A stretch of DNA of 64,000 bases from an uncultured delta proteobacterium (GTDB lineage: Bacteria > Desulfobacterota > Syntrophorhabdia > Syntrophorhabdales > WCHB1-27): assembly GCA_963810935.1 (NCBI GenBank), contig CAWEPK010000017.1:170484-234483 (forward strand). The letters run 5' to 3'. The notes below the pieces were generated by a model. The model did not search any database. It was not told the DNA's origin and saw only the letters and a list, made by a program, of their open reading frames with translations. Below are positions 12,349 to 43,606 of the stretch, piece by piece; the stretch's first letter is position 1; each line of letters opens with the position of its first letter. Position numbers and translations under genes: made by a program.

Positions 12349-14172
12349 ATGTACCACCAGAACTACAACCCTCTGGGTAATGTACTGCTCTCTACTATTG
12401 CGGCGGCAATTCCGATTCTGGTCCTTCTTTACTTCATAGCGCTCCATCCCCACAGGGATAAGACAGGCGTGAAGCACCTGGGCATAAGCGCCCCATATGC
12501 GGCCTTCTACGGCGTGATAGCGGCATTCGTTGTATCCTGCGTGGTCTTTGCCATGCCCTTCAAGTCTGCTATCTCGGCGTTCGCCTATGGGTCTCTCTCG
12601 GGCTTCCTGGGGATCATATGGATCGTTCTGGCAGCCATGTTCCTTTACACGATGACGGTCATAACGGGCAAGTTTGAGATCGTCAAGGAATCGATCATCC
12701 ATATCTCGTTCGACCGGCGCTTGCAGGTGCTGCTCATCGCGTTCTCCTTCGGCGCCATCATCGAGGGCACGTCAGGCTTCGGCACGCCCGTCGCCATCGC
12801 CGGCGCGGTCATGGTGGGCCTCGGGTTCGCGCCCTTCGAGGCGTGCGTGCTCAACCTGATTGCCAACACGGCGCCGGTCGCCTTCGGCGCTATCGGCACA
12901 CCCATCGTCACGCTCGCGCAGGTCAGCGGCCTCGACCAGTTGACCCTGTCGTCGATGGCCGGGCGGCAGCTTCCCTTCGTCTCTGTTATCGTGCCCTTCT
13001 GGCTCGTGGCTACCTTTGTATTCATGCACAAGGGCAAATGGAAAGATGTCTGGGAGGTCTGGCCTGCCACGCTCTGCTCCGGCCTTTCCTTCGCCCTCAT
13101 GCAGTTTGCGGCGTCGCAGACGAACGCATTCCACCTGATGACGGACGTCGTCGCGGGCGTCTTCTCGGTTGTCTGCACCGCCCTCTTCCTGCGCTTCGTC
13201 TGGCGTCCGAAGACGCGCTTCCTCCTTGCCGGGGAAAAAGACGTTGAAGTCCCCGCGGCCGCTGCTCCGGGCGCGAAAAAGACCCCGGTGAAGGCGCCGG
13301 TCGGCGAGTGGAAGTATCCTTACACCATCGGCCAGACGGCATATGCCTGGGTACCTTGGGGCATCCTCATCTGCTGCTGCGCCGTCTGGGGTATGCCGGC
13401 CTGGAAGGCGTACCTCGATCAGCTTCTAAACGGCATAAAGATCCAGACGACTTTCCTCGGCTCGACCTTCGCCGGGACGCTCTCTCTGCCTAAATGGAGC
13501 ATGCCCGCGCTCCATCAGATGGTCCAGAGGATGCCGCCGGTAGCTCCTATCAACGCGAAGCCGGAAGGCGCCATATTCGCGATCAACTGGCTGTCCGCCG
13601 CAGGCACGGGCGTTTTCGTGGCGGCGCTTTTGACGGGTATCACCCTCGGTCTTGGCGGCAAACAGTGGGGCGAGGCCATAGCCCGGACCTTCAGGCGTAT
13701 GAAGATCCCCGTACTGGTTATCGGGCAGGTGCTCGGCCTCGGATACCTTACCCGTTACGCCGGGACAGACGCTGTACTCGGCCTTGCCTTTACGGGGGCC
13801 GGCGTCCTTTACCCGTTCTTCTCGCCCTTTCTCGGCTGGCTGGGCGTCTTTTTGACCGGCTCGGACACGGCGGCGAACGCCCTGTTCGGCAGCCTCCAGA
13901 GGATTACGGCGCAGCAGTTGCACCTGAACGAGGTACTGATCGTGGCGTCGAACTCGACGGGCGGCGTCATGGGCAAGATGATCGACGCCCAGTCCATTAT
14001 GGTCGCCTGCGCGGCCTGCTACGAAGACCCGTACGAGCGCAGCCATGCGCTCGGGCCTATCTTCAGGAAGGTCTTCTGGCACTCCATTGCGCTGGCTGCC
14101 ATCATGGGCATTATAGTGATATTGCAGGCATACGTCTTCCCGTGGATGATACCCAGTCTGCCTCCGAAGTGA
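12349..14172 (+). CDS. lctP: L-lactate/glycolate permease (LctP/GlcA family)
   Basis: DRRLQVLLIAFSFGAIIEG..GFGTP, ANTAPVAFGAIG, FLTGSDT..NALFG and GGVMGKMIDAQS motifs; strong RBS. Confidence 0.92.
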   Translation: MYHQNYNPLGNVLLSTIAAAIPILVLLYFIALHPHRDKTGVKHLGISAPYAAFYGVIAAFVVSCVVFAMPFKSAISAFAYGSLSGFLGIIWIVLAAMFLYTMTVITGKFEIVKESIIHISFDRRLQVLLIAFSFGAIIEGTSGFGTPVAIAGAVMVGLGFAPFEACVLNLIANTAPVAFGAIGTPIVTLAQVSGLDQLTLSSMAGRQLPFVSVIVPFWLVATFVFMHKGKWKDVWEVWPATLCSGLSFALMQFAASQTNAFHLMTDVVAGVFSVVCTALFLRFVWRPKTRFLLAGEKDVEVPAAAAPGAKKTPVKAPVGEWKYPYTIGQTAYAWVPWGILICCCAVWGMPAWKAYLDQLLNGIKIQTTFLGSTFAGTLSLPKWSMPALHQMVQRMPPVAPINAKPEGAIFAINWLSAAGTGVFVAALLTGITLGLGGKQWGEAIARTFRRMKIPVLVIGQVLGLGYLTRYAGTDAVLGLAFTGAGVLYPFFSPFLGWLGVFLTGSDTAANALFGSLQRITAQQLHLNEVLIVASNSTGGVMGKMIDAQSIMVACAACYEDPYERSHALGPIFRKVFWHSIALAAIMGIIVILQAYVFPWMIPSLPPK

Positions 14173-14265: not shown

Positions 14266-15666
14266 ATGAACGGAAAGATGGAGCAGCTCATCGGCCAATA
14301 CCGCGCATTTTTGAAAGACGAGCAGATCGTGACGGACAAGGAAGGTATGGCCCACTATTGTTATGACGCCACGGAGATGCGGTTCATGCCGGATGTGGTC
14401 GTCCTGCCCTTCTCGACTGAAGAGGTCTCCCGGATTATGAAGCCGGCCTACGAGGCCGACATACCACTCACTCCGCAGGGAGGGCGAACGGGCCTGTCAG
14501 GAGGCGCGCTCCCTGTTGCCGGGGGCGTTCTCCTCTCCCTGATGCGGATGAACAAGGTGCTCGAGATCGACGAGAAAAACATGCAGGTGGTCGTCGAACC
14601 GGGCGTCGTGGCGGCAGACCTGCAGGCAACGTTGACAAAGCATAACCTCTTCTTCCCGCCCGACCCTTCGAGCACCATCGAGAGCACCCTGGGCGGCAAC
14701 GTGGCTGAAAACGCCGGCTATACCCGCGCCGTGAAATACGGCGTGACCAGGGACTATATCCTGGGCCTGGAGGCGGTCCTGCCCAACGGCGACATCATAA
14801 ACGTGGGCGGCAGGACGGTGAAGAACGTCACGGGGTACGACCTCGTCTCCCTTATCGTAGGGTCCGAAGGCACGCTGGCGGTAGTGACGAAGATCATCGC
14901 GAAGCTGCTGCCGAAACCGGCGCTGCGCCGAACCTGCATCTTCTACCTGGACGACCTCGTCGCGGCGGCAGACCTCGTCGTCGGCATCTTCGGAAGCGGC
15001 ATCGTGCCGTGCGCAATCGAGTTCATGGATAATACGAGCATCAACTGCGTGGCCGACTACCTCTCCGCCTCGGCGGACCTCCGCAGAGACGCCGCCGTCA
15101 TGGTGCTCGTGGAAGTTGACGGAAACCACCAGGCAGCGGTAGACGGGGACGTGAACAATGTGTTCGAGCTGGCCCGGAAGTCCAAAGGCGTCATCGAGTC
15201 GAAGCTCGCCAAAGACGACGAGGAGGCGGACCGCCTGTGGCGCATCAGGCGGGAGACGCTGCCCGCGCTCAAGGCACTCGGCAAGGACCACCTGGAGGCC
15301 GACGTCGTTGTACCCCGGTACAGGCTGCCCTACCTGGCGGGCTCGATAAAAGAGAGCGGGGAAGGAAAGAAGGTCAACATAGCGACTTACGGCCACGCGG
15401 GCGACGGCAACCTGCACGTCACCATCCAGTACAGGAGGCGCAACTTCGCGGAAACGTCAGAGGCCCACGAGCTGCTCGGCGAGATATACAAGAAGGCCGT
15501 CGAGATGCAGGGCAAGCTATCGGGCGAGCACGGGATCGGCCTTACTGCCAAAGATTATATGTTCATGCAGATGGGGCCCATCGAGATAGCGCTGATGAAG
15601 CGGGTCAAGCAGGCATTCGATCCGAAGGGGCTACTAAACCCAGGCAAAATCTTCCCCTCCGAATAG
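14266..15666 (+). CDS. FAD-linked 2-hydroxy-acid oxidoreductase (GlcD/D-lactate dehydrogenase family)
   Basis: GGRTGLSGG, FPPDPSS, GGNVAENAG, GSEGTL, GHAGDGNLH, SGEHGIG and LNPGK motifs. Confidence 0.9.
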   Translation: MNGKMEQLIGQYRAFLKDEQIVTDKEGMAHYCYDATEMRFMPDVVVLPFSTEEVSRIMKPAYEADIPLTPQGGRTGLSGGALPVAGGVLLSLMRMNKVLEIDEKNMQVVVEPGVVAADLQATLTKHNLFFPPDPSSTIESTLGGNVAENAGYTRAVKYGVTRDYILGLEAVLPNGDIINVGGRTVKNVTGYDLVSLIVGSEGTLAVVTKIIAKLLPKPALRRTCIFYLDDLVAAADLVVGIFGSGIVPCAIEFMDNTSINCVADYLSASADLRRDAAVMVLVEVDGNHQAAVDGDVNNVFELARKSKGVIESKLAKDDEEADRLWRIRRETLPALKALGKDHLEADVVVPRYRLPYLAGSIKESGEGKKVNIATYGHAGDGNLHVTIQYRRRNFAETSEAHELLGEIYKKAVEMQGKLSGEHGIGLTAKDYMFMQMGPIEIALMKRVKQAFDPKGLLNPGKIFPSE

Positions 15667-15917: not shown

Positions 15918-16457
15918 ATGAAATATGCTGCACTGCTGTTTACTGTTTGTTCTCTTTTGATTCTTGGACCGGCACAATCATTCGGCCAGGCTGCAGGCGG
16001 CCAGCAGGCAACAAAGGCCGTTGCGGTCCTCAACCCCGTTTCCGGTAGCTCGGTTACCGGCGTTGTAACATTCACCCGGGTCGATAACGGCATCAAGGTG
16101 GTTGCCGACGTGCAAGGCTTAACTCCCGGCAAGCACGGTTTCCACGTACACCAGTACGGGGATTGCACAGCGACGAACGGGGATTCCGCAGGCGGCCACT
16201 TCAACCCGGAAGGCAAACCGCACGGGGCGCCCATCAGCGGTGAGCGCCACGCGGGCGATTTTGGCAACATTACGGCAGGCGCCGACGGTAAGGCCCACTA
16301 CGAGTGGACGGACCCGATGATCGCCTTCGAAGGACGCGATTCCATCATGGGCCGGGGACTTATCGTCCACGCGAACGCCGACGATCTTACGTCGCAGCCG
16401 GCCGGTAATTCAGGCCCCAAGGTGGCCTGCGGCGTGATCGGCATCGCCGCAAAGTAA
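15918..16457 (+). CDS. sodC: Periplasmic Cu/Zn superoxide dismutase
   Basis: Signal peptide; HGFHVH, GGHFNP, RHAGD, IVHA..DD and ACGVIG motifs. Confidence 0.9.
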   Translation: MKYAALLFTVCSLLILGPAQSFGQAAGGQQATKAVAVLNPVSGSSVTGVVTFTRVDNGIKVVADVQGLTPGKHGFHVHQYGDCTATNGDSAGGHFNPEGKPHGAPISGERHAGDFGNITAGADGKAHYEWTDPMIAFEGRDSIMGRGLIVHANADDLTSQPAGNSGPKVACGVIGIAAK

Positions 16458-16693: not shown

Positions 16694-17956
16694 TTACTTG
16701 CTTGCTTCCTTTATCAGCTCACTGATGTGGATCACCTTTGTGGACAGGCCGGCCTTCTTTACGCCGTAGGTCAACTGTATCACGCAGCCCGGACATTCCG
16801 TCGTCAGTATGTCGGCCCCTGTTTTCTTGAGAAACTCCATCTTCTTTTCAAGGACCTTCATCGACTGCTCGTAGTGCATGATGTTGTAGCTGCCCGCCGC
16901 GCCGCAGCACCGGTCCGCTTCCTGCATCTCCACGAAGTTTATGCCGGGTATCTTCTTTATAAGCTCCCTGGGCTGCTTCGTAATATTCTGGTAGCGGCTC
17001 ATGTGGCACGGGTCGTGATACGTAACTTTCTTCCCGGCCAGGCTCTTACCGTTAAGCTCTCCGATCTGGGTCACCATGAACTCGCTGAAGGCCTTTACCT
17101 TTTTGGCGATGTCCTGCGCGCGCTTCTTCCAAACCGGGTCCTCTTCGAATAGCTCCGGGTACTCTTTCAGGAATGCAGAGCAGCTACCGCACTCCGTGAC
17201 TATCACGGGGGTATCCAGCTTCTCCAGCACCTCGATGTTCTTGCGCGCCATCTTACGCGCCGCCTCGACGTCGCCGTAGCCGAAGGCCGGAAGCCCGCAG
17301 CAGCAGTTGTCTGCGATCTTGACCTTTGCCCCCTGGCTGACCAGGACGCCGACCGTCGACTCGCTCACCTGCGGCAGCATATAATTGAAGCCGCAGCCGA
17401 CGAAGTAGCTGACTTCCGTCTTCACTTTTGTCGGCTCCAGGCGAAGGTTGCGGACCCTCTCACGGAAGAAAGGCGTCGGTATCTTCTCTATGAGACCTTC
17501 GGCCTTGTCCATGTCTTTGCCGAACCAGCTTAAGATGCCCATGGCCCTGGCGAGCTTTGAGAGGCCCGTGTTCTTGCCGATGGCGAGCAGGCGGACATAC
17601 TTGCCCATCTTCTGCGGGTTGGGCAGCAGGTCGTTGAAGAGCATCTTCATCACCTTCGGCTGCCCCACGCGCTTCATATACTCGGCCCTTCCTGCGACTA
17701 CGGCCTTGTCCGTGCGCACTGCGGGAAAGCAGTTGGCCACGCACGCCTTGCAGAGCAGGCACTCGAAGAGCGGGTCCTTGAAGTCCGCGCTGATCTCCAT
17801 CTTGCCTTCGGCCAGGCCGCGCACGTGGGCATTGTGCCCGCGCGCCACGTTCTTCTCGACGCCGGTGACCGCGAATATCGGGCAGTGCGCCTGACAGAAG
17901 CCGCAACGGTTGCATTTTGAGACTTCTTCGTATACTTGCTTATATTGTTCGTTCAT
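16694..17956 (-). CDS. glcF: Glycolate oxidase Fe-S subunit (GlcF-like; 2x[4Fe-4S] plus two CCG domains)
   Basis: CNRCGFCQAHCP, CLLCKACVANC, CCCG, YHDPCH and CCGAAG motifs; lies in an operon with glcD and glcE homologues. Confidence 0.85.
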   Translation of the reverse strand: MNEQYKQVYEEVSKCNRCGFCQAHCPIFAVTGVEKNVARGHNAHVRGLAEGKMEISADFKDPLFECLLCKACVANCFPAVRTDKAVVAGRAEYMKRVGQPKVMKMLFNDLLPNPQKMGKYVRLLAIGKNTGLSKLARAMGILSWFGKDMDKAEGLIEKIPTPFFRERVRNLRLEPTKVKTEVSYFVGCGFNYMLPQVSESTVGVLVSQGAKVKIADNCCCGLPAFGYGDVEAARKMARKNIEVLEKLDTPVIVTECGSCSAFLKEYPELFEEDPVWKKRAQDIAKKVKAFSEFMVTQIGELNGKSLAGKKVTYHDPCHMSRYQNITKQPRELIKKIPGINFVEMQEADRCCGAAGSYNIMHYEQSMKVLEKKMEFLKKTGADILTTECPGCVIQLTYGVKKAGLSTKVIHISELIKEASK

Positions 17957-17968
17957 TGTTATTCCCCT

Positions 17969-19172
17969 CTATATGATCGGCGGAAAGACCCCGGTCGGGT
18001 CAAGCTGCTCCTTGACAGGCCGCAGCACTAGCTGCTCGATGGTGCCGTTCACTCTCGGCCCCCACTTCGCAAGCAGCGTCCGGTTGAGATTCAAGGGGAG
18101 CTGCGAAGCCGTTTGCAGCCAGGCTCTTTGCCCCTTCGATGATCCGCTCGTCCGCCCCGTACACCAAGACTACGCCGTTCCCCGCAAAGAGTACGGTCTT
18201 CGCAGACCCTGCAAGCGCGGTCAGGCCGGCCAGCACGCGGGGCCCTTCCGAAATAGGCACCGTGACCTTTATCGCCATGGCCTCTCCCTGGGGCTCGATT
18301 GCAGCCCGGATCGCCTGCCGCATGGCCTCCCGGCCCATCTTCGCGTCCCCTTTGCCGCCGAAGTTGCCCGCCAACACCATAAGGTCCTTGTTCTCGCGCT
18401 CTACTGCGAGCGGATGGCCTTCGAATGCCGCCAGGACTTTGAAGCCGCTTTTTGCAGGCTCGACAGTCACAGCCGTGGGGACAAGCACCGACGACCGCAG
18501 CGCCTGGAGGAACTTCTCAAGCTCACTTAAGCCCGGGATTGCGACCTCACAGACCGAAGAGGCCTCGGGCAGCGGAAAGATGCGCATGACGGCAGCCGTG
18601 ATGAGAGCGAGGCTGCCCGCCGAGCCAATGAGGAACTTCGTCATGTCGTATCCGGAGACGTTCTTGACCGTCTTGCCTCCGAAAGCTACTAAGGCCCCCT
18701 TCGCGTCGATGCCCCGCACGCCCAGGGCCTGGTCGCGCACGGTGCCGTAACGGAGACGGCACGGGCCGCTCCCGTTCGCGGCAAAGACGCCTCCCATGGT
18801 AGCCCTGTTCGAGAACGGCGGATCGAGCGGAAGGAAGAAGCCCTTACCCTTGCCCGCCAGGACATCGTTGACGCTGTCTATCGTCGTTCCCGCGAGGACC
18901 ACCATGTTAAGGTTGGATATGTCCAATTCGTTGATGCCCGACATCCCCGTCATATCAAGTAAGATATCGACCCGCTCGGGCAGTGTGCCGGCCGATGGTG
19001 TGGTTGCGGCGCCCATAGGCAGTACGGTCAGCTTTTCCTTGAAGGCCCCGGCGAGTACCTGCTGCGCCTCGCTCTCCTTCGTAGGCCGCTCCACGTGCTT
19101 CGCGGCAACTCCAAGGGACTCTACGGTCCGAAGGGGCGCGCCGTCATTGCTACCTGTCTGCTTGTCCATCAC
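17969..19172 (-). CDS. glcE: Glycolate oxidase FAD-binding subunit (GlcE-like), with an apparent frameshift near 18096
   Basis: LDPP...ATMGG..A.N.SGP.R.RYG..RD, GGKTVKNVSGYD and GSAGSL motifs. Deleting one C of the CCCC run (18095-18098) restores the family C-terminus ...VKEQLDPTGVFPPII* ending at 17969, just before the glcF RBS. Confidence 0.8.
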
Positions 19173-20560
19173 GCCCTCGCCTCCTCTTTAGGTATGACCT
19201 TCCCAGGATTGCAGAGCGCCTTGGGGTCGATACCCTGCTTGACGCCGCGCATCATCCTGACATCGCCTTCCTTGAACACGAAAAACATCTCGCGGAGCTT
19301 CTCCGTACCGATGCCGTGCTCGCCGCTGATCGTGCCGCCTAAATCGGCGCAGACCTGCAATATCTCGCTTCCCGCCTTGTGCACGCGGGCAAGCTCGTCC
19401 GGGTCGCGGTCATCGAACATGATGAGGGGGTGGAGGTTGCCGTCTCCCGCGTGGAAGACGTTGCCGATGGGCACGTTGTATTTCTTGCTTATCCTCTTGA
19501 CCTCCGACAGCGCTTTAGGCAGCTCCGTGCGGGGCACGGTGCCGTCGCAGACGAGGTAGGCCGGCCTTACCCTGGCGACCGCGCCGAACGCGCCCCTGCG
19601 CCCTGCCCAGAGGATATTGCGCTCGTTCGCGTCCTTCGCCAGCCTGTGGCTCGTCGCCCCGTCCTTCTCGCAGACCTCGCTGATCCGCTTCGCCTGCTCG
19701 TCCATGCCGTCGGTGAGGCCGTCGAGCTCGATAAGGAGGACCGCTTCGGCGTCGAGGGGATAGCCCGCGTGCACCGAATCCTCGACCGCCCTTATGACGG
19801 CGTTGTCCATGATCTCGAGCGTTGCGGGGATGATGCCCTCCGCTATGATGTCGGAAACAGTCTGTCCCGCCGCCTCGACGGAGTTATAGATGGCAAGCAT
19901 CGTGACGACCCGCTCGGGGCTTTTCATGATGCGGCAGATAATTTTCGTGACGATCCCTAGCGTGCCTTCCGCGCCGACGAGAAGTCCCATCAGGTCGGGA
20001 CCGGGCGCGTCGAGCGCCTTGCCGCCTATCCAGGTCACTTCCCCGTTCGGAAGCACGACCTCGGCGCCGAGCACGTGGTTGCTGGTCACGCCGTATTTAA
20101 GGCAATGGGGGCCCCCCGCGTTCTCGCCGAGGTTGCCCCCCATCGAGGCAGCCTTCTGGCTGGCGGGGTCCGGCGCGTAGTAGTAGCCCTTTTCTGCGAG
20201 GGCGGACTGGACCGTAAGATTATAGATACCCGGCTCCACCGTGATCCTCTCGTTTTCGAGGTCGATCTCCAGGATGTGGTTCATGCGCGCGAACTCTATG
20301 ACGACGCCGCCGTCCATGGGTACCGTGCCCCCGGTAAGGTTCGTACCGGAGCCTCGCGCAACGTAGCTCATCCCTTCCTTGTAAAGGAGCTTGACGATCT
20401 GCGCAACCTGGTCGACGTTGTCGACGAAGGCGACCATGCCCGCCCTCCCCTTGACCAGCCCTGCGTCGTAGCTGTAGACCGTCAGGTCGACGTCTTTCCA
20501 GAGGACGTTGTCTTTCCCCACGATGCGCTGCAGGGCGTCACGGACTTGCTCTTTCTCCAT
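19169..20560 (-). CDS. glcD: Glycolate oxidase FAD-binding subunit GlcD
   Basis: RGSGTNLTGG, APDPASQ, ENAGGPHCLKYGVT, FHAGDGNLHP, GEHGIG and NPGK motifs. Confidence 0.9.
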   Translation of the reverse strand: MEKEQVRDALQRIVGKDNVLWKDVDLTVYSYDAGLVKGRAGMVAFVDNVDQVAQIVKLLYKEGMSYVARGSGTNLTGGTVPMDGGVVIEFARMNHILEIDLENERITVEPGIYNLTVQSALAEKGYYYAPDPASQKAASMGGNLGENAGGPHCLKYGVTSNHVLGAEVVLPNGEVTWIGGKALDAPGPDLMGLLVGAEGTLGIVTKIICRIMKSPERVVTMLAIYNSVEAAGQTVSDIIAEGIIPATLEIMDNAVIRAVEDSVHAGYPLDAEAVLLIELDGLTDGMDEQAKRISEVCEKDGATSHRLAKDANERNILWAGRRGAFGAVARVRPAYLVCDGTVPRTELPKALSEVKRISKKYNVPIGNVFHAGDGNLHPLIMFDDRDPDELARVHKAGSEILQVCADLGGTISGEHGIGTEKLREMFFVFKEGDVRMMRGVKQGIDPKALCNPGKVIPKEEARA

Positions 20561-20598
20561 AAATACCTCCCGTCTTTAGAGCATCCTCTTTCTATTCC

Positions 20599-23500
20599 CT
20601 AGCCCTTCGGGGACCAGGCAGCCAGATGCTTCAAGTACTTCCATCTTCTCGTGACCGCTTCTTCCGCTTGCTTCAGCAACTCAGCCGCCACCTGCGGATT
20701 GCTCCTTTTGAGCGACTTGAACCGGTTTTCCCTGTATAGAAACTCGGCATAGGGTATGCTCGGGTCCTGACAATCGAGGGTAACCGGGTTTTTGCCCTCA
20801 TCCTCGAGCATCGGGTTATAACGGAAGAGCGGCCAGTGGCCCGAGGCCACCGCCTTCTTTTGCTCCTCCAACCCGAGCGACATGTCATCGATGCCCTGGC
20901 CGATGCAGTGCGAGTACGCGACGATCAATGAAGGCCCGTTGAAGGCCTCCGCCTCCTGGAAGGCCCTTACCGTCTGCGCCGGGTTTGCGGCGAACGCGAC
21001 GTGGGCCACGTAGACGTGCCCGTACGGTATCATCATCGAGGCGATATTCTTCTTGGGCATATGCTTCCCGGCCGCCGCGAACTGCGCTACGGCGCCGAGC
21101 GGCGTCGATTTCGACATTTGCCCGCCCGTATTGGAGTAAACTTCCGTATCGAGGATCAACAAATTGACGTTCTGGCCGGAGGCCATGACCTGATCGACCC
21201 CGCCGTAGCCGATATCGTATCCCCATCCGTCGCCGCCCAGGCCGAACACCGCCTTTTTTACGAGGTAATCGGCGAAGGAGGCGAGGTCGACCGCATCGGC
21301 CGACTTATCGGCGGCGAGCAGCTTCTTCAGCTCCTCCACACGGGCGCGCTGCTGCTCGATGCCGCCCTGGTTGGACTGATCGGCGCTCACGAGCGCCTCG
21401 AACAGTACAGCAGCCCCTGCGTACTTCTCCTGTTTGGAGAGGCGCTCAACGATCTCGCGGGCCTGCGCGTTGAACTTATCCACCGTCTGCCTCATGCCGA
21501 AGGCAAACTCCGCCGCATCCTCGAACAGGGAGTTGGACCAGGCAGGGCCCCTCCCGTCAGCCCGCTTCGCATACGGCGTAGTCGGCAGGTTGCCTCCATA
21601 AATGGAGGAGCAGCCCGTAGCGTTGCCGACGAGGAGCCTGTCGCCGAAAAGCTGCGTGAGGAGCTTCACGTAAGGCGTCTCGCCGCAGCCCGCGCACGCG
21701 CCGCTATATTCGAAAAGCGGCCTCACGAACTGGCTCCCCTTTACGCTCATGCGGTTGTATCTGGCAGGGTCCGTGTCCGGCAGGTCGAGGAAGAACGCGT
21801 AGTTCTCCGCCTCCTGGCTGCGAAGCGGCTCCTGTAGGTGCATGTTGATGGCCTTTTCGCCGGTCTTGTTCCCTTCCGCGTCTTTTTTCTGCGCAGGGCA
21901 CATATTGACGCAGAGCTTGCAGCCCGTGCAGTCTTCCGGTGCGACCTGCACGGTGAACTTAAGGCCTTTAAGCTCCTTGGCGCCCTTCGCATCGGCCGAC
22001 TTGAACGTCCCCGGCGCGCCTTTAAGCAACTCCGGCTCGTAAGCCTTGATCCTGATCGAGGCGTGGGGACAAACGAAGGAGCACGAGCCGCACTGGATGC
22101 AGACATCCGGCTCCCAGACAGGGATGTGCACCGCTATGTTCCGTTTCTCGTACTGGGTAGTCGCGGTAGGCCACGTGCCGTCGTCAGGCATCGCCGAGAC
22201 CGGCAGCGAATCGCCCTTCCCTTCTATCATGACCGCTGTGACGTCCTTGACGAACGCCGGCGCGTAATCGGGGACCGGCGGGCGCATGTCCAGGCTTGAC
22301 GTGGCTTTCGCAGGTATCGGCACCTCAACCAGGTTTTGGAGGGCCGTATCGACTGCGGCGTAGTTCATTCGCAGGACCTCATCGCCCTTCTTGCCGTATG
22401 TCTTCAGTATTTCCTTCTTGATCGCCTTGACCGCCTCGTCCTTCCCGACGATGCCCGATATGACGAAGAAGGCCGTCTGCATGATCATGTTTATGCGGGC
22501 GCCCAGGCCGATTTCCTCGGCCAGAGAGATGGCGTCGATGATATAGAGGCGCATCTTCTTGGCTATAAGCTGTTTCTGGACGGCTGCGGGCAGGGCATCC
22601 CACACCTCGTCCTTGCCTTTAGCCGTCGTGAGCAGGAAGACGGCGCCTTCTTCCGCCTGGGCGAGCATGTCGTATTTTTCGAGGAACGTCTCGTTGTGGC
22701 AGGCAACGAAGTTCGCGTCCGACAGCAAATACGGGCTGCGTATCGCGTCCTTGCCGAACCGCAGGTGCGAGACCGTCATCGAGCCCGATTTCTTCGAATC
22801 GTAAGCGAAGTAGCCCTGCGCGTAATTCTCCGTCTCTCCGCCGATGATCTTGATCGTGTTCTTGTTGGCCCCGACCGTACCGTCCGCCCCGAGGCCGTAA
22901 AAGAGGGCGCGGAACGCCTTGTCGTGCAGCCTGAACGATTCGTCTACCGGCAGGCTCGCGCCGGTCACGTCATCGTTGATGCCTACCGTGAAATGGTTCT
23001 TCGGGGCAGCGGAAGAGAGGTTGTCGAAAACCGCCTTCACCATGGCAGGGGTGAAATCTTTGGAGCCGAGACCATAGCGGCCGCCTACGACCTTAGGATA
23101 GGAGCCCCAGTGCGCGAGGCCCGTATCATGCGCCTCGCCGAGCGCTGCCCGCACGTCGAGATAGAGCGGCTCGCCGATTGCGCCGGGCTCCTTCGTGCGG
23201 TCGAGGACCGCGATCGATTTGACCGTCGAAGGCAGCGCCTTTGCAAAAGCCTCTACGTCGAACGGCCTGTAAAGAACGACCTGGAGAAGGCCTACCTTCT
23301 CGCCCGTGGCGTTGAGGGCATCGATCGTGGAGAGGACCGTTTCTCCGCCCGATGCCATGACGACGACGACACGCTCGGCGTCGGCCGGACCGAAGTAGTC
23401 GAAAAGCTTGTACCTGCGTCCCGTAAGACCGGCGAACTTCTCCATCGCCTTCTCTAATATGGCCGGGATCGCCAGGTAGTACTTGTTCACTGTCTCCCTT

Positions 23501-24183
23501 CCCTGAAAGTAAACATCGGGGTTCTGGGAGGTGCCGCGGATCATGGGACGGTCAGGGGTGAGACCCCTCTTCCGGTGGGCCATGATGAGCCCGTTGTCGA
23601 TCATCGCCCGCATGTCGTCGAAGCTAAGCTCTTCGATCTTCTGGATCTCGTGAGACGTCCTGAAGCCGTCGAAAAAGTGGAGGAAAGGCACCCTCGCCTC
23701 GAAGGTGGCTGCCTGGGCGATAAGGGCAAAATCCATTGCCTCCTGTACGTTTTTCGACGCGAGCATCGCAAACCCGGTCTGGCGGACGGCCATTACGTCG
23801 CCGTGGTCCCCGAAGATGGAAAGCGCCTGTGCGGCCAGCGCCCTCGCGGTAACGTGAAAAACCGTGGGTATCAGCTCGCCGGCAATCTTATACATGTTCG
23901 GGATGAAGAGAAGCAGCCCCTGTGAAGCGGTAATGGTGCTCGTCACGGCGCCTGTGGTCAGCGACCCATGGACGGCCCCTGCTGCCCCTGCTTCCGACTG
24001 CATCTGCCCTATCATCGGCACGGAGCCCCAGATGTTCTTCTGTCCCGCGGCCGATTTGGCGTCGCAAATCTCCGCTATGGGCGAAGAAGGCGTTATAGGG
24101 TAGATAGTGATGATCTCATTTGTCGCATGGACAACGTGCGCGCATGCCGTACATCCGTCGACCGTTACCATTTTTCTGCTCAC
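20599..24183 (-). CDS. nifJ: Pyruvate:ferredoxin (flavodoxin) oxidoreductase, single-chain type
   Basis: YPITPSS, QSEAGAAG, DGFRTSHE, GRYGLGSKDF, two ferredoxin motifs, GACAGCGETPY, GGDGW.YDIG and VYSNTGGQ; 1194 aa. Confidence 0.96.
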   Translation of the reverse strand: MSRKMVTVDGCTACAHVVHATNEIITIYPITPSSPIAEICDAKSAAGQKNIWGSVPMIGQMQSEAGAAGAVHGSLTTGAVTSTITASQGLLLFIPNMYKIAGELIPTVFHVTARALAAQALSIFGDHGDVMAVRQTGFAMLASKNVQEAMDFALIAQAATFEARVPFLHFFDGFRTSHEIQKIEELSFDDMRAMIDNGLIMAHRKRGLTPDRPMIRGTSQNPDVYFQGRETVNKYYLAIPAILEKAMEKFAGLTGRRYKLFDYFGPADAERVVVVMASGGETVLSTIDALNATGEKVGLLQVVLYRPFDVEAFAKALPSTVKSIAVLDRTKEPGAIGEPLYLDVRAALGEAHDTGLAHWGSYPKVVGGRYGLGSKDFTPAMVKAVFDNLSSAAPKNHFTVGINDDVTGASLPVDESFRLHDKAFRALFYGLGADGTVGANKNTIKIIGGETENYAQGYFAYDSKKSGSMTVSHLRFGKDAIRSPYLLSDANFVACHNETFLEKYDMLAQAEEGAVFLLTTAKGKDEVWDALPAAVQKQLIAKKMRLYIIDAISLAEEIGLGARINMIMQTAFFVISGIVGKDEAVKAIKKEILKTYGKKGDEVLRMNYAAVDTALQNLVEVPIPAKATSSLDMRPPVPDYAPAFVKDVTAVMIEGKGDSLPVSAMPDDGTWPTATTQYEKRNIAVHIPVWEPDVCIQCGSCSFVCPHASIRIKAYEPELLKGAPGTFKSADAKGAKELKGLKFTVQVAPEDCTGCKLCVNMCPAQKKDAEGNKTGEKAINMHLQEPLRSQEAENYAFFLDLPDTDPARYNRMSVKGSQFVRPLFEYSGACAGCGETPYVKLLTQLFGDRLLVGNATGCSSIYGGNLPTTPYAKRADGRGPAWSNSLFEDAAEFAFGMRQTVDKFNAQAREIVERLSKQEKYAGAAVLFEALVSADQSNQGGIEQQRARVEELKKLLAADKSADAVDLASFADYLVKKAVFGLGGDGWGYDIGYGGVDQVMASGQNVNLLILDTEVYSNTGGQMSKSTPLGAVAQFAAAGKHMPKKNIASMMIPYGHVYVAHVAFAANPAQTVRAFQEAEAFNGPSLIVAYSHCIGQGIDDMSLGLEEQKKAVASGHWPLFRYNPMLEDEGKNPVTLDCQDPSIPYAEFLYRENRFKSLKRSNPQVAAELLKQAEEAVTRRWKYLKHLAAWSPKG

Positions 24184-24275
24184 GGGTCCTTTCCTCCTGA
24201 TACTGAAGTTTCAAAACAGACGGTGGGGTGCTCTCCCGAAAGAGGCGTACCCCACCGCTCTTTCGTCATATAGTT

Positions 24276-25172
24276 CTACTTGCCTTTGCGCGCCTTGTCA
24301 AAGGCTTCTATCTCGGCAAGGGTCAAAAGAATAGTCCTTGCGTTGTCGTAAACCGGCGTATCGACCATCTTGCCCTTATAGGAGACGGCCGCCTTACCCT
24401 TGGCGAGGCCCTCTTCCTCGAAGGTCTTGACTACGCCGCGCGCCCACTCCACGTCGTCGGGCGCCGGGGCATAGAGCCTGTTGGAGGGCTCGATCTGGCT
24501 CGGATGGATGAGCATCCTGCCCTCATAGCCCATCTGCCTGCCCTGCTGGACGCTCTTCTCGAAGCCTACCGTATCCTGGAATGCTACATACGGGCAGTCG
24601 ATGGCGATCTTGCCGGCCGCCCTCGCTGCGCATGCGATATGGAAACGGGCATAAAGCTGCTCGTCGCCTTCGCTCGTGATCTTTACCCGCATATCCTTCG
24701 TATAGTCGACTGCGCCGAAGATGAGGGAGTTGACCCTGGGTGACGCCATGGCCGAATAATACGCGTTGATGGCGCCTTTCGCCGTCTCGCAGAGAAGCTG
24801 GATGGCGACGGTGCCGACGGGGATGCCGCGCCGTCTTTCGAGCTCTTCGAGCTTCCAGTCGAGGCGTTTCACGTCGTCCGGGTGGCCGGCCTTCGCGAGG
24901 CAGACGCCTGAGAGGCCCGGGTGGACGATGGCTTCGAGGTCATCGTTGGTCATCAGGGTTTCCCAGTTGTTGATGCGAGAATAGACCACCGAGCCGCCCG
25001 ATCCGGCCAGCTTCAAGTTTTGCCGGACCAGCTCACGCGCTTTTTCCTTCTCGGCCGGGGGGACGGAATCCTCGAGGTCGAGGGTAACGATGTCAGCCGG
25101 CAGCGAAGGCGCTTTGTCGATAAAGCTCTGGTTGTTTCCCGGAACGTAAAACACCGATCTCATTACAGGCAT
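24276..25172 (-). CDS. CitE/malyl-CoA lyase family CoA-ester lyase
   Basis: RSVFYVPG, LDLEDSV, RIN, ETAKG, FGAVDY, IHPSQI and GKMVD.P motifs. Confidence 0.88.
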   Translation of the reverse strand: MPVMRSVFYVPGNNQSFIDKAPSLPADIVTLDLEDSVPPAEKEKARELVRQNLKLAGSGGSVVYSRINNWETLMTNDDLEAIVHPGLSGVCLAKAGHPDDVKRLDWKLEELERRRGIPVGTVAIQLLCETAKGAINAYYSAMASPRVNSLIFGAVDYTKDMRVKITSEGDEQLYARFHIACAARAAGKIAIDCPYVAFQDTVGFEKSVQQGRQMGYEGRMLIHPSQIEPSNRLYAPAPDDVEWARGVVKTFEEEGLAKGKAAVSYKGKMVDTPVYDNARTILLTLAEIEAFDKARKGK

Positions 25173-25183
25173 GTCGTACCTCC

Positions 25184-26083
25184 TTAGTGGTTTTCGATTA
25201 ACCGTTTAATCGTGGGCGCCAGCTCGTCGGGCCGGTCGACCACGTGCACTCCCGCTTCCTTGAGTGACTCCACCTTGCTCTTCGCGGAGCCTTTACCCCT
25301 TTCGATGATGCTGCTCGCGTGGGAGAAACGCATCCCTTCCGGCGCCCATGCGCCCGCCACGAAGATTACGAGGGGCTTGGTGAACTGGCCCTTCCGGACG
25401 CAGTCGGCAGCCTCTTCCTCATGGGGCCCGCCTATCTCGCCGAAGACGGCCACGCCCTTCGTTTCGGCGTCCTTCTCGAAAAGGGGCAGTATCTCCCCCA
25501 TCGATATGCCGGTCACGGGCTCGGTGCCTACGTGGACGACCGTGCTCATGCCGAGGCCGGCGCAGTTAAGCGCCCACGGCACCGTCGCCGACTGGCCGCC
25601 GCTTCTCGAAATAACGCCGACCGGGCCGGGTATGAAGACTTTCCGCGCAAAATCCGGGGTCCCGCCCAGCCAGCCTGCCGCCGCTATGCCCGGGCTGATG
25701 ATGCCTATGGAGCCGGGGCCTAAGATGCGGGCGCCGTTCAGCTTCGCGTAGGCCACCATCTCCATAATGTCGTACAGGGGGACGCGCTCGACGGGGCTGA
25801 CAATAAACTTGATCCCCGAATCGATCGCCTCGTAGACTGCGTCCTTGAGGCCGGGGCCGGGTACGAAGGTGACGCTCGCGGCGATAGGGCCTTTGGCACG
25901 GACCGCCTCCGCCACCGTGTTATAGACCGGAATGCCGGAGACTTCCTCGCCTCCCCTGCCGGGTGTTACCCCTGCCAGGACTTTCGTCCCATATCCCTTC
26001 ATGAAAGCGGCGCGGGCAGACCCCTCTCGACCGGTGATCCCTTGCACCACAATCGTCGTATCTTTCGTCAAAAGAATTGCCAT
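25184..26083 (-). CDS. ADP-forming acyl-CoA synthetase alpha subunit (SucD/MtkB-like, divergent)
   Basis: VQGITGREG, GVTPGRGG, SRSGG and GEIGG motifs; phospho-His loop GMRFSHASSI. Confidence 0.85.
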   Translation of the reverse strand: MAILLTKDTTIVVQGITGREGSARAAFMKGYGTKVLAGVTPGRGGEEVSGIPVYNTVAEAVRAKGPIAASVTFVPGPGLKDAVYEAIDSGIKFIVSPVERVPLYDIMEMVAYAKLNGARILGPGSIGIISPGIAAAGWLGGTPDFARKVFIPGPVGVISRSGGQSATVPWALNCAGLGMSTVVHVGTEPVTGISMGEILPLFEKDAETKGVAVFGEIGGPHEEEAADCVRKGQFTKPLVIFVAGAWAPEGMRFSHASSIIERGKGSAKSKVESLKEAGVHVVDRPDELAPTIKRLIENH

Positions 26084-26101
26084 ATGCTCACCGCCTTTTC
26101 G

Positions 26102-26386
26102 TTATGCTATTCCGCGTTTCTTCTTGTACTCTTCCAGGCCGGGGATCGGCGCCTCTATGTTAATGGCGCTGTTGCCCCGGAACCAACACTCATACTCGCA
26201 CGCAAGGCACTCGGTGCCGCGGAGCTTCGCGAATTCCGCGTCGCCCCCAAGGGCCGGCTTGCCGTCCTTCAACACCAGGATGCCCCTTGCGAATTTCTTG
26301 CACGCGTCAACGCATGCGTGCGTCTTGCACCCAAGGCACTTCTCGTCATCTATAATGACCTTGATGGTCCTCTCGTCGAACTCCAT
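26102..26386 (-). CDS. Small ferredoxin-like Fe-S protein
   Basis: CLGCKTHACVDAC and GTECLACEYEC Cys clusters; AGGAGG RBS overlapping the end of the upstream gene. Confidence 0.75.
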   Translation of the reverse strand: MEFDERTIKVIIDDEKCLGCKTHACVDACKKFARGILVLKDGKPALGGDAEFAKLRGTECLACEYECWFRGNSAINIEAPIPGLEEYKKKRGIA

Positions 26387-27649
26387 CTATCCCTCCTTTA
26401 TGCCCCTCTTCGCCCTGTAGTCCATGATCATCGCCTTGAGCCGCGTGGCCAAGAACGTCGTCTCATAAACCTTGTCGCCGCCGTAAATCTCGATGGGCGA
26501 CTTCGCGCTGAGGTCCTTCGTCCCTTCGTGGAGGATCTTCAGCGACTCCTCCTCCTTGTTGCCGCAAAGCAGCAGCAGGCATGGGAAGTCGGGCCTCTTG
26601 GGCAGCTCCTCACGCAGGATCTTCACGATGCCGTGGGCATGGTGCCATTGCTCCTGGTTGGCGTACATGAACCCGCCCAGGAAATAGGCCTCAATGCCGG
26701 GCTGGGCAAAAATGACCTTTGCCGCCCTGTAGACCTTGGAGGCAGGCGGGTTGCCGCTGGTGTCCGCATAGTTTGCGATCTTGAGGCCCTGGCGCGTGAT
26801 GGCGTCTACGCCCAAAATGGCGCCGCCGCCGCCTAAGCCGTGGTAGCCCACGTAGCCGAGCCCCTTGATCTCCGGGACCATCTGGGCAATGTACGCTGTG
26901 CCGCGCAGGTCCCCTTCCTCGATGCCCCATGCGATCTTGTCGAGCTCCGTAGGCGCCGTCGTTGCCTCACGGGCGACTTCGATGCCGAACTCGGGATGGC
27001 GGAAAACGGAGGAATCGTCTATGGCGATGCGGCAGTCGGCCGCCAGTACCTTGCCTTCCTTGGTAAGTACCAGGGGGTTGATCTCGGCGATCCTGCAATG
27101 GTACTTCACGAAGGTCTGGTACAGACCCATGATGGCCTGTCCGACGGCGGGGAGTATCTTGGTCGGCACATTCAGGCCGACAGCGAGGTTGTAAGCATCA
27201 AAAAGCTTGAAGCCCCGCAGGACGTCCACCTTTACCGTCCTGATCTTGTCCTCGGGCACCGATTCGATGTCCATACCGCCTTCCGTGCTGAACATGACGA
27301 CCGGACACCGGGAATCCTTGGACGGGTCGATGATGATGCCGACGTAGTATTCCGTCTCGATGGCCAGCTTTTCCTCGACCAGGACCTTCTCGACCTTCCA
27401 CGACTTCAGCTCCGTGCCCAGAAGGCCCGCTGCAGCGCCTTCCGCATCCTTCGGGCTGTCGGCGAACTTGATGCCGCCCGCCTTGCCCCTGCCGCCGGCC
27501 CACACCTGGGCCTTCACGGCCACGGGCTTGCCGATCGTCCCGGCGATGCGGCCCGCCTCTTCGGCGGACGTAGCGACCTCGCCTTTCGGCGTCGCCACCT
27601 TGGCCTCCCTGAGGATCTGCTTGCCCTGAAATTCATATAACCGAGCCAT
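26387..27649 (-). CDS. ADP-forming acyl-CoA synthetase beta subunit (SucC/MtkA-like, divergent)
   Basis: ATG 27649 follows GGAGGT; LYEFQGK, KAQVWAGGRGKAGGI, GGMDIE and EINPL ATP-grasp motifs. Confidence 0.87.
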   Translation of the reverse strand: MARLYEFQGKQILREAKVATPKGEVATSAEEAGRIAGTIGKPVAVKAQVWAGGRGKAGGIKFADSPKDAEGAAAGLLGTELKSWKVEKVLVEEKLAIETEYYVGIIIDPSKDSRCPVVMFSTEGGMDIESVPEDKIRTVKVDVLRGFKLFDAYNLAVGLNVPTKILPAVGQAIMGLYQTFVKYHCRIAEINPLVLTKEGKVLAADCRIAIDDSSVFRHPEFGIEVAREATTAPTELDKIAWGIEEGDLRGTAYIAQMVPEIKGLGYVGYHGLGGGGAILGVDAITRQGLKIANYADTSGNPPASKVYRAAKVIFAQPGIEAYFLGGFMYANQEQWHHAHGIVKILREELPKRPDFPCLLLLCGNKEEESLKILHEGTKDLSAKSPIEIYGGDKVYETTFLATRLKAMIMDYRAKRGIKEG

Positions 27650-27757
27650 TATCACCTCCTGAATGGTGTCACACGTCTTTATGAGAACGCAGGACGGACC
27701 GACACGGCCCCGAAACGCCGGCCAAATCATCGGTCCCGAAACATCTCGCTAATGTTA

Positions 27758-27860
27758 TTGTATAAGTATACCAAACCATAGGGGGGGCCTGTCAAGCACA
27801 ATCTCTACAGCCTTTTGTTAATTTAATATTGACATAAAGTTGTAAGGTTGTTATATAAAT
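27758..27860. promoter_or_regulatory. Divergent sigma70 promoters with candidate FadR/GntR operators
   Basis: Plus strand: TTGACA 27829-27834, 17 nt, TATATA 27852-27857 with an upstream TG. Minus strand: TTGACA 27795-27790 and extended -10 TG-G-TATACT (27770-27765). Quasi-palindrome TTGTATAAGTATACCAA. Confidence 0.6.
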
Positions 27861-27870
27861 TAGGCACAAC

Positions 27871-28614
27871 ATGTTCAGACAAATCAAGATACGCCACGTA
27901 GCGGAAGAAGTCTTCGACCAGATCAAGTCCGCCATCGAGACCGGCAAGCTGAAACCGGGCGAGAAGCTGCCTGCCGAGAGGGAGCTTATGGGCCAGCTCG
28001 GGGTCAGCCGCGTTCCGATCCGGGAGGCCCTGAAGCTGCTTTCGAACATGGGCCTGATCGAGACGAGGCAGGGCGGGGGCAGCTACGTCCGCGCGCTCCT
28101 CTCGGACCGCTTGCTCGACCCTCTGGGCGCCATCATAGCCGACAGCGCGGAGAAGCTCTTCGAGCTGGTCGAGGTGCGCAGGGAAATCGAGACATGGTCG
28201 GCATGCTACGCCGCGAAAGAGGCGAGCCCGGTGGAAATCGCCGACATCGGCCGCGTGCTCCGGGAAATGAAGATGCATGTCGATTCCGGCTCCAGGGTGC
28301 CGGTCAGCCTCGATATAGAATTTCACCGCGCCATTGCCCAGGCCAGCTCCAATACGATACGGGCGCACCTGTTCCATACCATCCTGGCCATATTTTCCGA
28401 TTATTTCAGGCTTACCATAGAGACCATCTGCCCGCACGAAGACGACCAGCGCCGCCTCTACGATCAGCACGTGGAGATATTCAACGCCATTAAAGACCGC
28501 GACGCCAAGCAGGCCCGCGACGCCATAACCCAGCACCTTACGTTCGTTGCGGAGGAATTGAAAAAACAGATGCCGATGGCCGGCCTGAAAACGGTTGCGC
28601 CGGCAGAAGAGTAA
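27871..28614 (+). CDS. FadR/GntR-family transcriptional regulator (LldR/GlcC/PdhR-like)
   Basis: wHTH LKPGEKLPAEREL...GVSR.PIREAL; FCD domain D.EFH..IA.AS.N. Confidence 0.92.
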   Translation: MFRQIKIRHVAEEVFDQIKSAIETGKLKPGEKLPAERELMGQLGVSRVPIREALKLLSNMGLIETRQGGGSYVRALLSDRLLDPLGAIIADSAEKLFELVEVRREIETWSACYAAKEASPVEIADIGRVLREMKMHVDSGSRVPVSLDIEFHRAIAQASSNTIRAHLFHTILAIFSDYFRLTIETICPHEDDQRRLYDQHVEIFNAIKDRDAKQARDAITQHLTFVAEELKKQMPMAGLKTVAPAEE

Positions 28615-31574: not shown

Positions 31575-31578
31575 CGGC

Positions 31579-38492: not shown

Positions 38493-38515
38493 GGGACCGC
38501 CTCCGTTATGCAGCT

Positions 38516-39742: not shown

Positions 39743-39984
39743 TGCAGCCTCGCTTGTCCGTTCAAATGGAATGCTATACGTCGCGCACGTGGTTGTCAAG
39801 GAGTGGGGTCTATACTCACACGATAAGGCAGACGGTTTCTCCCCATCGGCCCATCACATTTTGAATTATTCCATCGGGAAGTAAATAATCGTCAAATAAT
39901 CACCGAAAATTTCAGTTGACAAAAAAGACGGTACTGAGGTACTGAATACCGTAGGGTACAAAGGTAAACGACCAAGGAGAGGAC

Positions 39985-40680: not shown

Positions 40681-40693
40681 GACAGGAGGCATT

Positions 40694-42474: not shown

Positions 42475-42519
42475 TCGCGTGCAAAGAAAGACATGTCAGA
42501 CCGAACAAGGAGGATCCGA

Positions 42520-43548: not shown

Positions 43549-43606
43549 CGGCCTGAGGCGAAGGACCGGGGGCGGGTTTTGCTTTACTGCCCAAGGGGGT
43601 GGTGTT

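Follow-up and report, generated by a model that had tools for sequence, protein, structure and literature searches.

We analyzed a 64,000-nt stretch of DNA (the window; positions 170,484 to 234,483 of the forward strand of contig CAWEPK010000017.1) from GCA_963810935.1, the metagenome-assembled genome (MAG) of an uncultured delta proteobacterium, and report an eight-gene operon (window positions 16694-27649, minus strand) that probably encodes a malyl-CoA cycle by which glycolate (or glyoxylate) would be oxidized anaerobically and ATP formed by substrate-level phosphorylation. The gene family assignments, a catalytic histidine, the gene order and its conservation, and the linkage in relatives to malic enzyme, pyruvate:ferredoxin oxidoreductase (single-chain PFOR or four-subunit POR), and GlcDEF-type dehydrogenase genes are directly supported by the data. 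We favor the malyl-CoA cycle: in one phylum the lyase and ligase genes at its center are linked to malic enzyme, and in other phyla they are linked to GlcDEF and POR, a pattern that is hard to account for in any other way. The cluster most likely enables its host, an oxygen-avoiding soil bacterium, to oxidize glycolate to CO2 with direct formation of ATP, and it appears to put genes to a pathway known so far only through enzyme assays. The pathway is already known; the enzyme sub-family behind it appears undescribed, and the lineages appear new.

Both photorespiration and algal excretion yield glycolate as a major product, according to an excerpt of the Syntrophobotulus glycolicus genome paper (PMC3156405), and anaerobic glycolate conversion via the malyl-CoA pathway is listed, in a portion of another paper (PMC6313629), for S. 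glycolicus, Desulfofustis glycolicus, Moorella sp. HUC22-1, M. thermoacetica, and a Lachnospiraceae strain. For S. glycolicus, glyoxylate metabolism via malyl-CoA was proposed from physiological and enzymatic evidence (excerpt of PMC8092247), and a term search of its genome paper found no mention of malyl-CoA or malate (PMC3156405). In a full-text literature search (subscription journals lay outside its scope), we found no paper assigning genes to the thioester steps of the pathway, no account of an Fe-S partner for a SucCD-type ligase, and no report of the pathway in Syntrophales, Syntrophorhabdales, or Nitrospirota.

Operon layout and predicted pathway

The eight open reading frames (ORFs) of the operon are all on the minus strand, with intergenic gaps of at most 92 nt (0, 18, 11, 92, 38, -4 (an overlap), and 43 nt in transcription order, from the sucC-like to the glcF-like gene). 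The first three encode a SucC-like ligase beta subunit of 420 aa (26387..27649), a candidate malate-CoA ligase/malyl-CoA synthetase (ADP-forming), a 94-aa ferredoxin-fold Fe-S protein (26102..26386) that begins right behind the sucC-like stop and is a candidate third ligase partner, and a SucD-like ligase alpha subunit of 299 aa (25184..26083) that carries the phospho-histidine site. They are followed by a CitE/HpcH-family CoA-ester lyase of 298 aa (24276..25172), a candidate malyl-CoA lyase (glyoxylate + acetyl-CoA = malyl-CoA), and by a single-chain PFOR of 1194 aa (20599..24183). The last three genes have the GlcDEF architecture within one operon, namely a GlcD-like FAD subunit of glycolate/D-2-hydroxyacid dehydrogenase type (19169..20560; FAD_binding_4 and FAD-oxidase_C), a GlcE-like FAD-binding subunit (18000..19172; FAD_binding_4; 4-nt overlap with the glcD stop), and a GlcF-like Fe-S subunit (16694..17956; a 2x[4Fe-4S] motif and two CCG domains; CCG 126 bits, Fer4_8). 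The sucC-like gene starts with the ATG at 27649, which has AGGAGG ahead of it, and the longer start offered by the ORF finder at 27730 is unlikely.

Family calls were made by Pfam and NCBIfam profile searches with curated cut-offs, and scores are given below as score vs cut-off in bits. Among the operon and LctP proteins, curated NCBIfam cut-offs were passed only by PFOR (TIGR02176, 1778.7 vs 911.35, an equivalog cut-off) and, for the permease, by the LctP subfamily model (TIGR00795, 458 vs 341). The preliminary description of this DNA had listed eight tightly spaced minus-strand genes with a divergent regulator and an LctP permease nearby, and the ORF list, Pfam, and NCBIfam bear this out, every predicted family being present.

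In the proposed cycle, a GlcDEF-like flavo/Fe-S dehydrogenase would oxidize glycolate to glyoxylate, the CitE-type lyase would join glyoxylate and acetyl-CoA to malyl-CoA, and the SucCD-like ligase, running in reverse via its conserved phospho-histidine, would convert malyl-CoA, ADP, and Pi to malate, CoA, and ATP. A malic enzyme encoded elsewhere in the genome would then yield pyruvate and CO2 from malate, and the operon's PFOR would turn pyruvate into acetyl-CoA, CO2, and reduced ferredoxin, for a predicted net of glycolate -> 2 CO2 + 6 [H] + 1 ATP. The divergent GntR/FCD protein (27871..28614, plus strand; LldR/PdhR/GlcC-like; Pfam GntR and FCD) is the likely 2-hydroxyacid-responsive regulator, and the LctP-family permease of lactate/glycolate type (12349..14172, plus strand; Lactate_perm 461 bits) the likely importer. 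Electrons could pass to sulfate/sulfite or to a partner organism; the host genome has dsrA matches above cut-off and NiFe hydrogenase matches, and searches of it gave no match for FeFe hydrogenase or malate synthase. What the enzymes act on, which way they run, how the operon is regulated, and what the Fe-S protein does are computational predictions throughout.

The earlier claim that the operon encodes every step except malate to pyruvate stands insofar as it holds a candidate gene for each of the four activities, while the activities themselves are predicted from sequence. For the missing step, a look-up of malic enzyme in the genome, as then suggested, found two loci on contig C12 (~19100-20400, L107, and ~150300-153900, L108), both unlinked to the operon. 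A second PFOR is also encoded elsewhere in the genome.

Conservation in Desulfobacterota and Nitrospirota relatives

Scanning one genome per species with the lyase gave 293 encoding stretches, the best 80 of which were kept (74-99% identity); counts out of 80 below refer to these best 80 of 293, and many of the loci end at contig ends. Most come from MAGs with the labels Syntrophales, Syntrophaceae, Syntrophorhabdales, 'delta proteobacterium', or Thermodesulfobacteriota; five have Nitrospirota-type labels and one is labelled Clostridia. Searches (tblastn) with the window proteins located the lyase gene at 80 loci, sucD at 73, the Fe-S protein gene (fdx) at 72, sucC at 68, glcD at 55, and glcF at 43. 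The gene arrangement is not a chance juxtaposition, the core order sucC-fdx-sucD-lyase being kept at all 68 loci with both ligase genes. Further, of the 60 loci that extend at least 3 kb past the lyase, 47 carry a glcD-like gene in the same orientation no more than 5 kb downstream of it.

One Nitrospirota MAG (L006) has the order sucC-fdx-sucD-lyase-glcD-glcE-glcF-malic enzyme-porC-(porD)-porA-porB, which by its gene families is the whole proposed cycle in a single array. POR of two architectures adjoins the module in different lineages, i.e., the single-chain PFOR, which is part of the operon in just the window and L002 and, as fragments, in L001, and the four-subunit POR, whose genes adjoin the module in L003, L004, L006, and L064. 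Other recurrent neighbors are a homologue of the regulator at the equivalent place (30 of the 80 loci), TRAP transporters (24 loci), a D-2-hydroxyacid-dehydrogenase/glyoxylate-reductase-like gene (9 loci), and LctP (8 of 80). Separately, a Syntrophorhabdaceae MAG (L009) has three M24/creatinase-like genes and a D-2-hydroxyacid dehydrogenase (L009:2712-7324) directly ahead of sucC-fdx-sucD-lyase, with no glcDEF; these upstream genes may supply glyoxylate by another route.

Malic enzyme linkage in Bacillota

A protein collection was searched with the beta subunit encoded at L057, the single locus labelled Clostridia, and named orthologues (NCBI/UniRef) came from Neomoorella/Moorella species (87-93% identity to this query, including M. 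thermoacetica), Desulfosporosinus species, and S. glycolicus DSM 8271 (69% identity). Among 401 sampled Bacillota_B genomes, 21 gave matches at E <= 1e-60, with >=69% identity in 16 of these, and in one Bacillota family 40 of 69 genomes had a match at E <= 1e-150. We examined 26 Bacillota_B loci drawn from the strong matches in these two samples, and 23 of them read sucC-fdx-sucD-lyase-malic enzyme; one other reached a contig end right after the lyase, and two were without a lyase in the stretch. In addition, glcF-glcE-glcD lay directly upstream on the same strand at 10 of the 26 loci, a LutB/CCG-type gene stood behind malic enzyme at six, and malic enzyme was Pfam-confirmed at three. The closest match to the S. 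glycolicus protein (P0186) in the 401 and 69 genomes was 90% identical, and the gene order thus comes from relatives and not from S. glycolicus itself. Two Bacillota loci (L117 and L123, in genomes G446 and G428) carry sucC-fdx-sucD ~86% identical to the S. glycolicus protein, with no lyase or malic enzyme in the 14 kb of sequence available.

The preliminary description had proposed seeking the cluster in known glycolate-using anaerobes, and the search found beta-subunit orthologues named from S. glycolicus and M. thermoacetica, in the same clade as the window's protein (94/93). Its malyl-CoA interpretation is supported by malic enzyme behind the lyase in Bacillota_B, by the L006 array, and by the downstream glcD. 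Judging from these gene clusters, the capacity seems to be common among Desulfobacterota of Syntrophales and Syntrophorhabdales type, Bacillota of the Desulfitobacteriia/Moorella type, and some Nitrospirota.

The ligase and its probable Fe-S partner

The ligase has the hallmarks of the SucCD superfamily, that is, an ATP-grasp beta subunit (Pfam ATP-grasp_2, 179 bits) and a CoA-binding alpha subunit (Pfam CoA_binding and Ligase_CoA) with a conserved catalytic histidine. This residue, H255 in 'FSHA', is invariant in an alignment of 20 sequences and aligns with the histidine of 'GHAG' in the solved succinyl-CoA synthetase (SCS) alpha chains 2yv2_A and 2yv1_A. Both subunits fall short of the SucCD equivalog level (beta, NF001913, 242.5 vs 370; alpha, NF004230, 272.3 vs 336), while a canonical SucCD pair on contig C10 of the same genome is above both cut-offs (491 and 429 bits). 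A second, borderline pair lies on C8, and the C10 and C8 beta subunits are each ~32% identical to that of the operon, so the operon ligase is an extra, divergent paralogue. Its beta subunit shares 51% identity with the S. glycolicus protein and 54% with that of M. thermoacetica, and its best PDB matches are Thermus SCS-beta (200 bits) and then the large subunit of Hydrogenobacter citryl-CoA synthetase (147 bits).

A maximum-likelihood tree of beta subunits was built from 20 Fe-S-linked proteins and three ordinary SucC paralogues, with authentic MtkA, CcsA, and ACL sequences not included and the L074 and L099 rows (internal stops) left out of the alignment. All 20 Fe-S-linked proteins formed a single clade (100/100), within which the 18 paired with a CitE-type lyase, the window's protein included, grouped together (94/93) and the Bacillota proteins, including those of S. 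glycolicus and M. thermoacetica, formed a subclade (100/99). The tree, part of the ligase phylogeny that had been called for, separates this group from canonical SucC; comparison with MtkA was by profile score only, below cut-off. The two sucC-like genes with internal stops (L099:6022-7275, in genome G062, with an in-frame TAG, and L074:7524-8789) could be pseudogenes, errors, or cases of recoding.

The Fe-S protein has seven invariant cysteines in an alignment of 21 sequences (C17, C20, C25, C29, C60, C63, and C67), arranged as CxxCxxxxCxxxC and CxxCxxxC, and it does not have the pattern of bacterial-type ferredoxins (two CxxCxxCxxxCP, 2x[4Fe-4S]). No Pfam family scored above cut-off, with a weak match to Fer4_2 (21.5 vs 24.5), and its protein Atlas clusters are without name or Pfam family. 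A structure model (predicted local distance difference test, pLDDT, 86) has a ferredoxin-like fold; Foldseek against PDB gave no match at E <= 0.001, and the weak matches were to ferredoxin folds (best E 7e-3). A natural fusion was sought, and the lone candidate, cluster P0244 (SucC-like residues 1-313 joined to Fe-S residues 43-94), was rejected as a deletion chimera.

The fdx gene lies between sucC and sucD at all 68 loci with both ligase genes, a position kept even at loci without GlcDEF or POR (L009 and L042) and in a sister clade (L103 and L104), whose Fe-S protein has an eighth cysteine that restores the full second motif. Because this place between the ligase genes is fixed, the protein probably works with or binds the ligase, rather than serving as a general electron carrier. 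The 'ferredoxin' of the preliminary description is thus kept as a small ferredoxin-fold Fe-S protein, while a free carrier is less likely than a ligase partner. As the ligase is below curated cut-offs and always accompanied by this unnamed protein, it seems to represent a branch of the SucCD/citryl-CoA-synthetase superfamily that consists of three genes and has so far gone undescribed. We tentatively raise the broader possibility that it is the founding example of an undescribed family of ADP-forming hydroxy-dicarboxylyl-CoA synthetases with three components, in which a ferredoxin-fold subunit with 7 or 8 cysteines is obligatory alongside alpha and beta. Such a family would be sister to citryl-CoA synthetase; its CitE-lyase branch would make ATP from malyl-CoA, its Ccl-lyase branch would handle citramalyl-/citryl-CoA, and the Fe-S subunit would tie ATP formation to redox state or oxygen. 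On this tentative view, the wide spread of the malyl-CoA branch would mean that the importance of glycolate as an electron donor in anoxic soils, peat, and sediments has been overlooked.

The CitE-type lyase

The lyase is a member of the HpcH/CitE superfamily (Pfam HpcH_HpaI, 129.7 vs 25). Its best curated model is CitE (TIGR01588, 199.5 vs 443.4, below cut-off), it is also below the RipC/Ccl cut-off (123 vs 375), and there was no bacterial Mcl model among its profile matches. Against PDB, it scored 131.7 bits with CitE-like 1sgj, 128.2 with Methylobacterium Mcl 5ugr, and 120.8 with human CLYBL 5vxc, i.e., with no preference for Mcl. It is the only CitE-type copy found in its genome, no citD/citF-like genes were seen among the annotated neighbors in the window, and its identity to the Bacillota copies located ahead of malic enzyme is 64-75%. 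Sequence similarity alone leaves the substrates of ligase and lyase unsettled.

Evidence against and alternative interpretations

A number of observations weigh against a malyl-CoA cycle. At the level of protein families, the beta subunit scores far below the MtkA cut-off (NF010647, 175.8 vs 604) and lower with that model than with SucC (the S. glycolicus orthologue is also below the MtkA cut-off, at 176), the lyase scores 77.3 vs 500 with the haloarchaeal Mcl model NF041626, the sole curated Mcl model tried, and is outscored there by CitE, and GlcD (TIGR00387, 515 vs 567.9), GlcE (NF008439, 121 vs 284), and GlcF (158 vs 333) are all below cut-off. With regard to gene content, 13 of the 60 loci are without a downstream glcD-like gene; five of them (L008, L012, L028, L015, and L032) have GlcD- or GlcF-like genes upstream instead, and the other eight (L009, L010, L013, L018, L038, L042, L044, and L068) have no GlcD/GlcF-like gene in the available stretch. 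The pathway also gives no role to an Fmt-like formyltransferase paralogue that sits between lyase and glcD at 37 of the 80 loci (Formyl_trans_N+C, ~305 aa; 168 and 153 bits vs the fmt equivalog cut-off of 201.5 for L047:11157-12068 and L042:10942-11880); this gene is absent from the window, and in the Nitrospirota loci L042 and L044 it trails the lyase without any glcDEF. Finally, the malic-enzyme gene of the host most like the operon-linked ones of relatives is split by a frameshift in the draft (near L107:1456-1473), the assembly (4.06 Mb, 21 contigs, 93.5% completeness) has a contamination estimate of 7.06%, and the public sequencing runs listed for the stretch are seven of DNA and zero of RNA. 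The frameshift, and the PFOR and glcD in pieces on the 99%-identical MAG contig L001, may be assembly errors.

The alternative that fares best, which we nevertheless regard as unlikely, is a lactate-oxidation island in which LctP imports lactate, LarA racemizes it, GlcDEF-like and a second GlcD-like protein serve as D-lactate dehydrogenases, PFOR takes the pyruvate, and the ligase and lyase are unrelated. E. coli GlcDEF also oxidizes D-lactate, and Desulfovibrio lactate operons contain PFOR. In the window, lctP and, after it, the gene for a second, stand-alone GlcD-like FAD dehydrogenase (14266..15666, plus strand; TIGR00387, 444 vs 567.9; possibly a D-lactate dehydrogenase) lie 1-4 kb off the operon, and a LarA (lactate racemase family) homologue is encoded at 34017-35294 (plus strand), which suggests that the neighborhood also handles lactate or other 2-hydroxy acids and fits lactate use too. 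Likewise, the best NCBIfam match of GlcF is the C-terminal half of the lactate-dehydrogenase subunit LdhH (286 vs 800), and the regulator matches LldR (153 bits) ahead of PdhR (132) and GlcC (122), all below cut-off. However, the conserved ligase-Fe-S-lyase core, which co-occurs with glcDEF (47/60), would have no role in such an island, malic enzyme directly behind the lyase (23/26 Bacillota loci and L006) would go unexplained, and PFOR belongs to the operon only among the window's closest relatives. GlcDEF may well use both glycolate and lactate.

Slightly less probable still is a citramalyl-CoA or citryl-CoA module, in which the ligase activates citramalate or citrate, the lyase yields acetyl-CoA plus pyruvate or oxaloacetate, and PFOR takes the pyruvate. 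In its favor are the rank of CitE as the lyase's best curated model, the match of beta-subunit residues 4-390 to the citryl-CoA synthetase large subunit 6hxq_B (E 4.5e-42), a Citrate_bind (PF16114) score nearly at cut-off (26.7 vs 26.8), and the sister clade L103/L104, where sucC-fdx-sucD is accompanied by a Ccl-type citryl-CoA lyase (277 vs 212) and by methylaspartate ammonia-lyase and class-I fumarase-like genes, the set expected for a citramalate branch. In the window's own clade, however, GlcDEF, malic enzyme, and POR are the neighbors, with no mesaconase or methylaspartate genes among them, the lyase is well under the CitE cut-off, and the clade includes S. glycolicus, which uses only glyoxylate/glycolate according to an excerpt of its genome paper (PMC3156405). 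The citramalate option of the preliminary description therefore fits the more distant sister clade and not that of the window. The sister loci themselves (L103:2410-15288 and L104, Bacillota_B, genomes G121 and G159) encode a three-gene ligase of 40-45% identity, the 8-Cys Fe-S protein, and then the Ccl-type lyase, surrounded by a PrpR-like activator, class-I fumarase-like subunits, methylaspartate ammonia-lyase, an amidohydrolase, an OYE/FlpD fusion, and MTHFR, and by this content look like a citramalyl-CoA branch of the methylaspartate pathway.

In methylotrophs, MtkAB and Mcl run malate to acetyl-CoA and glyoxylate. A reverse, serine-cycle direction of this kind, with ATP spent on malate -> malyl-CoA -> acetyl-CoA + glyoxylate and glyoxylate reduced to glycolate or assimilated, strikes us as quite improbable, for although the ligase and lyase reactions are reversible and S. 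glycolicus reduces glyoxylate to glycolate in glyoxylate fermentation (excerpt of PMC3156405), no serine-cycle genes were seen in the window, the linkage to malic enzyme and POR fits the removal of malate and not its supply, and an ATP-consuming malate split brings no obvious gain to an anaerobe.

Other features of the window and genome

Operon and regulator diverge from an intergenic region of 221 nt (27650..27870), the presumed promoter/operator, where TTGACA ... TATACT with a long spacer can be read by eye. The consensus scan had no match there, and an inverted-repeat search gave one AT-rich palindrome (27818-27837) and nothing else. Scanned for consensus promoters and terminators, the stretch had sites no more frequent than shuffled sequence, and transcript boundaries are therefore set from gene spacing only. 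As for the permease, it scores 460 bits with the L-lactate permease model and 456 with GlcA, both below their equivalog cut-offs.

Between the two 2-hydroxy-acid modules lies a periplasmic-type Cu/Zn superoxide dismutase gene (15918-16457, plus strand). Beyond the divergent regulator are another GntR/FCD gene and the genes of a Liv-type ABC transporter (29445-33969), with the larA homologue right behind the latter, and further on, aconitase X small and large subunits (38064-39799, minus strand) are divergent from a third GntR/FCD regulator, a TRAP transporter (DctQ, DctM, and DctP), and a short-chain dehydrogenase (39985-44389, plus strand). Another 2-hydroxy-acid oxidation unit is encoded at 56784-59711 (plus strand), a 975-aa fusion of GlcD-like FAD domains, 4Fe-4S, and CCG with YdiJ-like architecture, which has a class-V aminotransferase and a MatC/CitMHS dicarboxylate carrier as its neighbors on either side (55691-56863 and 59739-61001). 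The window also holds an NrfA-type cytochrome c552 (53742-55043, minus strand), in a genome that bears dsrA. The two dsrA matches have equal scores (566.6 bits; C8:663471-664640 and C10:306073-307242), which could reflect a duplication or two strains binned together.

Comparison with known systems

Five known systems resemble parts of this operon. With E. coli GlcDEF, GlcC, and GlcA, it shares the three-subunit architecture, a GntR/FCD regulator, and an LctP-family permease, whereas its subunits, regulator, and permease are below the curated E. coli-type cut-offs and the electron acceptor in an anaerobe must differ. The 'malate cycle' of Cupriavidus necator reportedly leads from glyoxylate and acetyl-CoA via malate and pyruvate back to acetyl-CoA, so that glycolate is fully oxidized to CO2; it is said to be aerobic, to use malate synthase and pyruvate dehydrogenase, and to conserve no ATP at the thioester. 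With no malate synthase found in the window's genome, the lyase and ligase proposed here would instead conserve the thioester energy. Hydrogenobacter thermophilus citryl-CoA synthetase and lyase (6hxq) and ATP-citrate lyase likewise combine an ADP-forming hydroxy-acid-CoA ligase with a C-C lyase, but the window's lyase is of CitE type and not of citrate-synthase type, the neighboring genes point to malate, and there is an extra Fe-S protein.

MtkAB and Mcl of the methylotroph serine cycle are of the same superfamilies as the window's ligase and lyase, whose two predicted reactions they carry out, with a physiological direction opposite to that proposed here. The window's ligase is far under the MtkA cut-off, its lyase is no nearer to Mcl 5ugr than to a CitE-like protein, and we know of no Fe-S partner of MtkAB. 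Malate thiokinase and malyl-CoA lyase are used in synthetic carbon-conserving pathways, and an ATP-yielding malyl-CoA synthetase with an unexplained Fe-S partner would be of interest for enzymology and possibly for engineering.

With the malyl-CoA pathway of S. glycolicus, D. glycolicus, Moorella sp. HUC22-1, and M. thermoacetica (Friedrich and Schink), the operon shares the same predicted reaction sequence, and close relatives of the S. glycolicus and Moorella beta subunits are encoded in sucC-fdx-sucD-lyase-malic enzyme operons. That pathway is defined by enzyme assays, whereas ours is gene-based and comes from a dsrA-bearing Desulfobacterota-type MAG, with PFOR in the operon and malic enzyme unlinked. 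Together, the operon and its relatives provide a testable gene set for a whole cycle known so far from enzyme work on a few isolates, one that would let the capacity be recognized in metagenomes.

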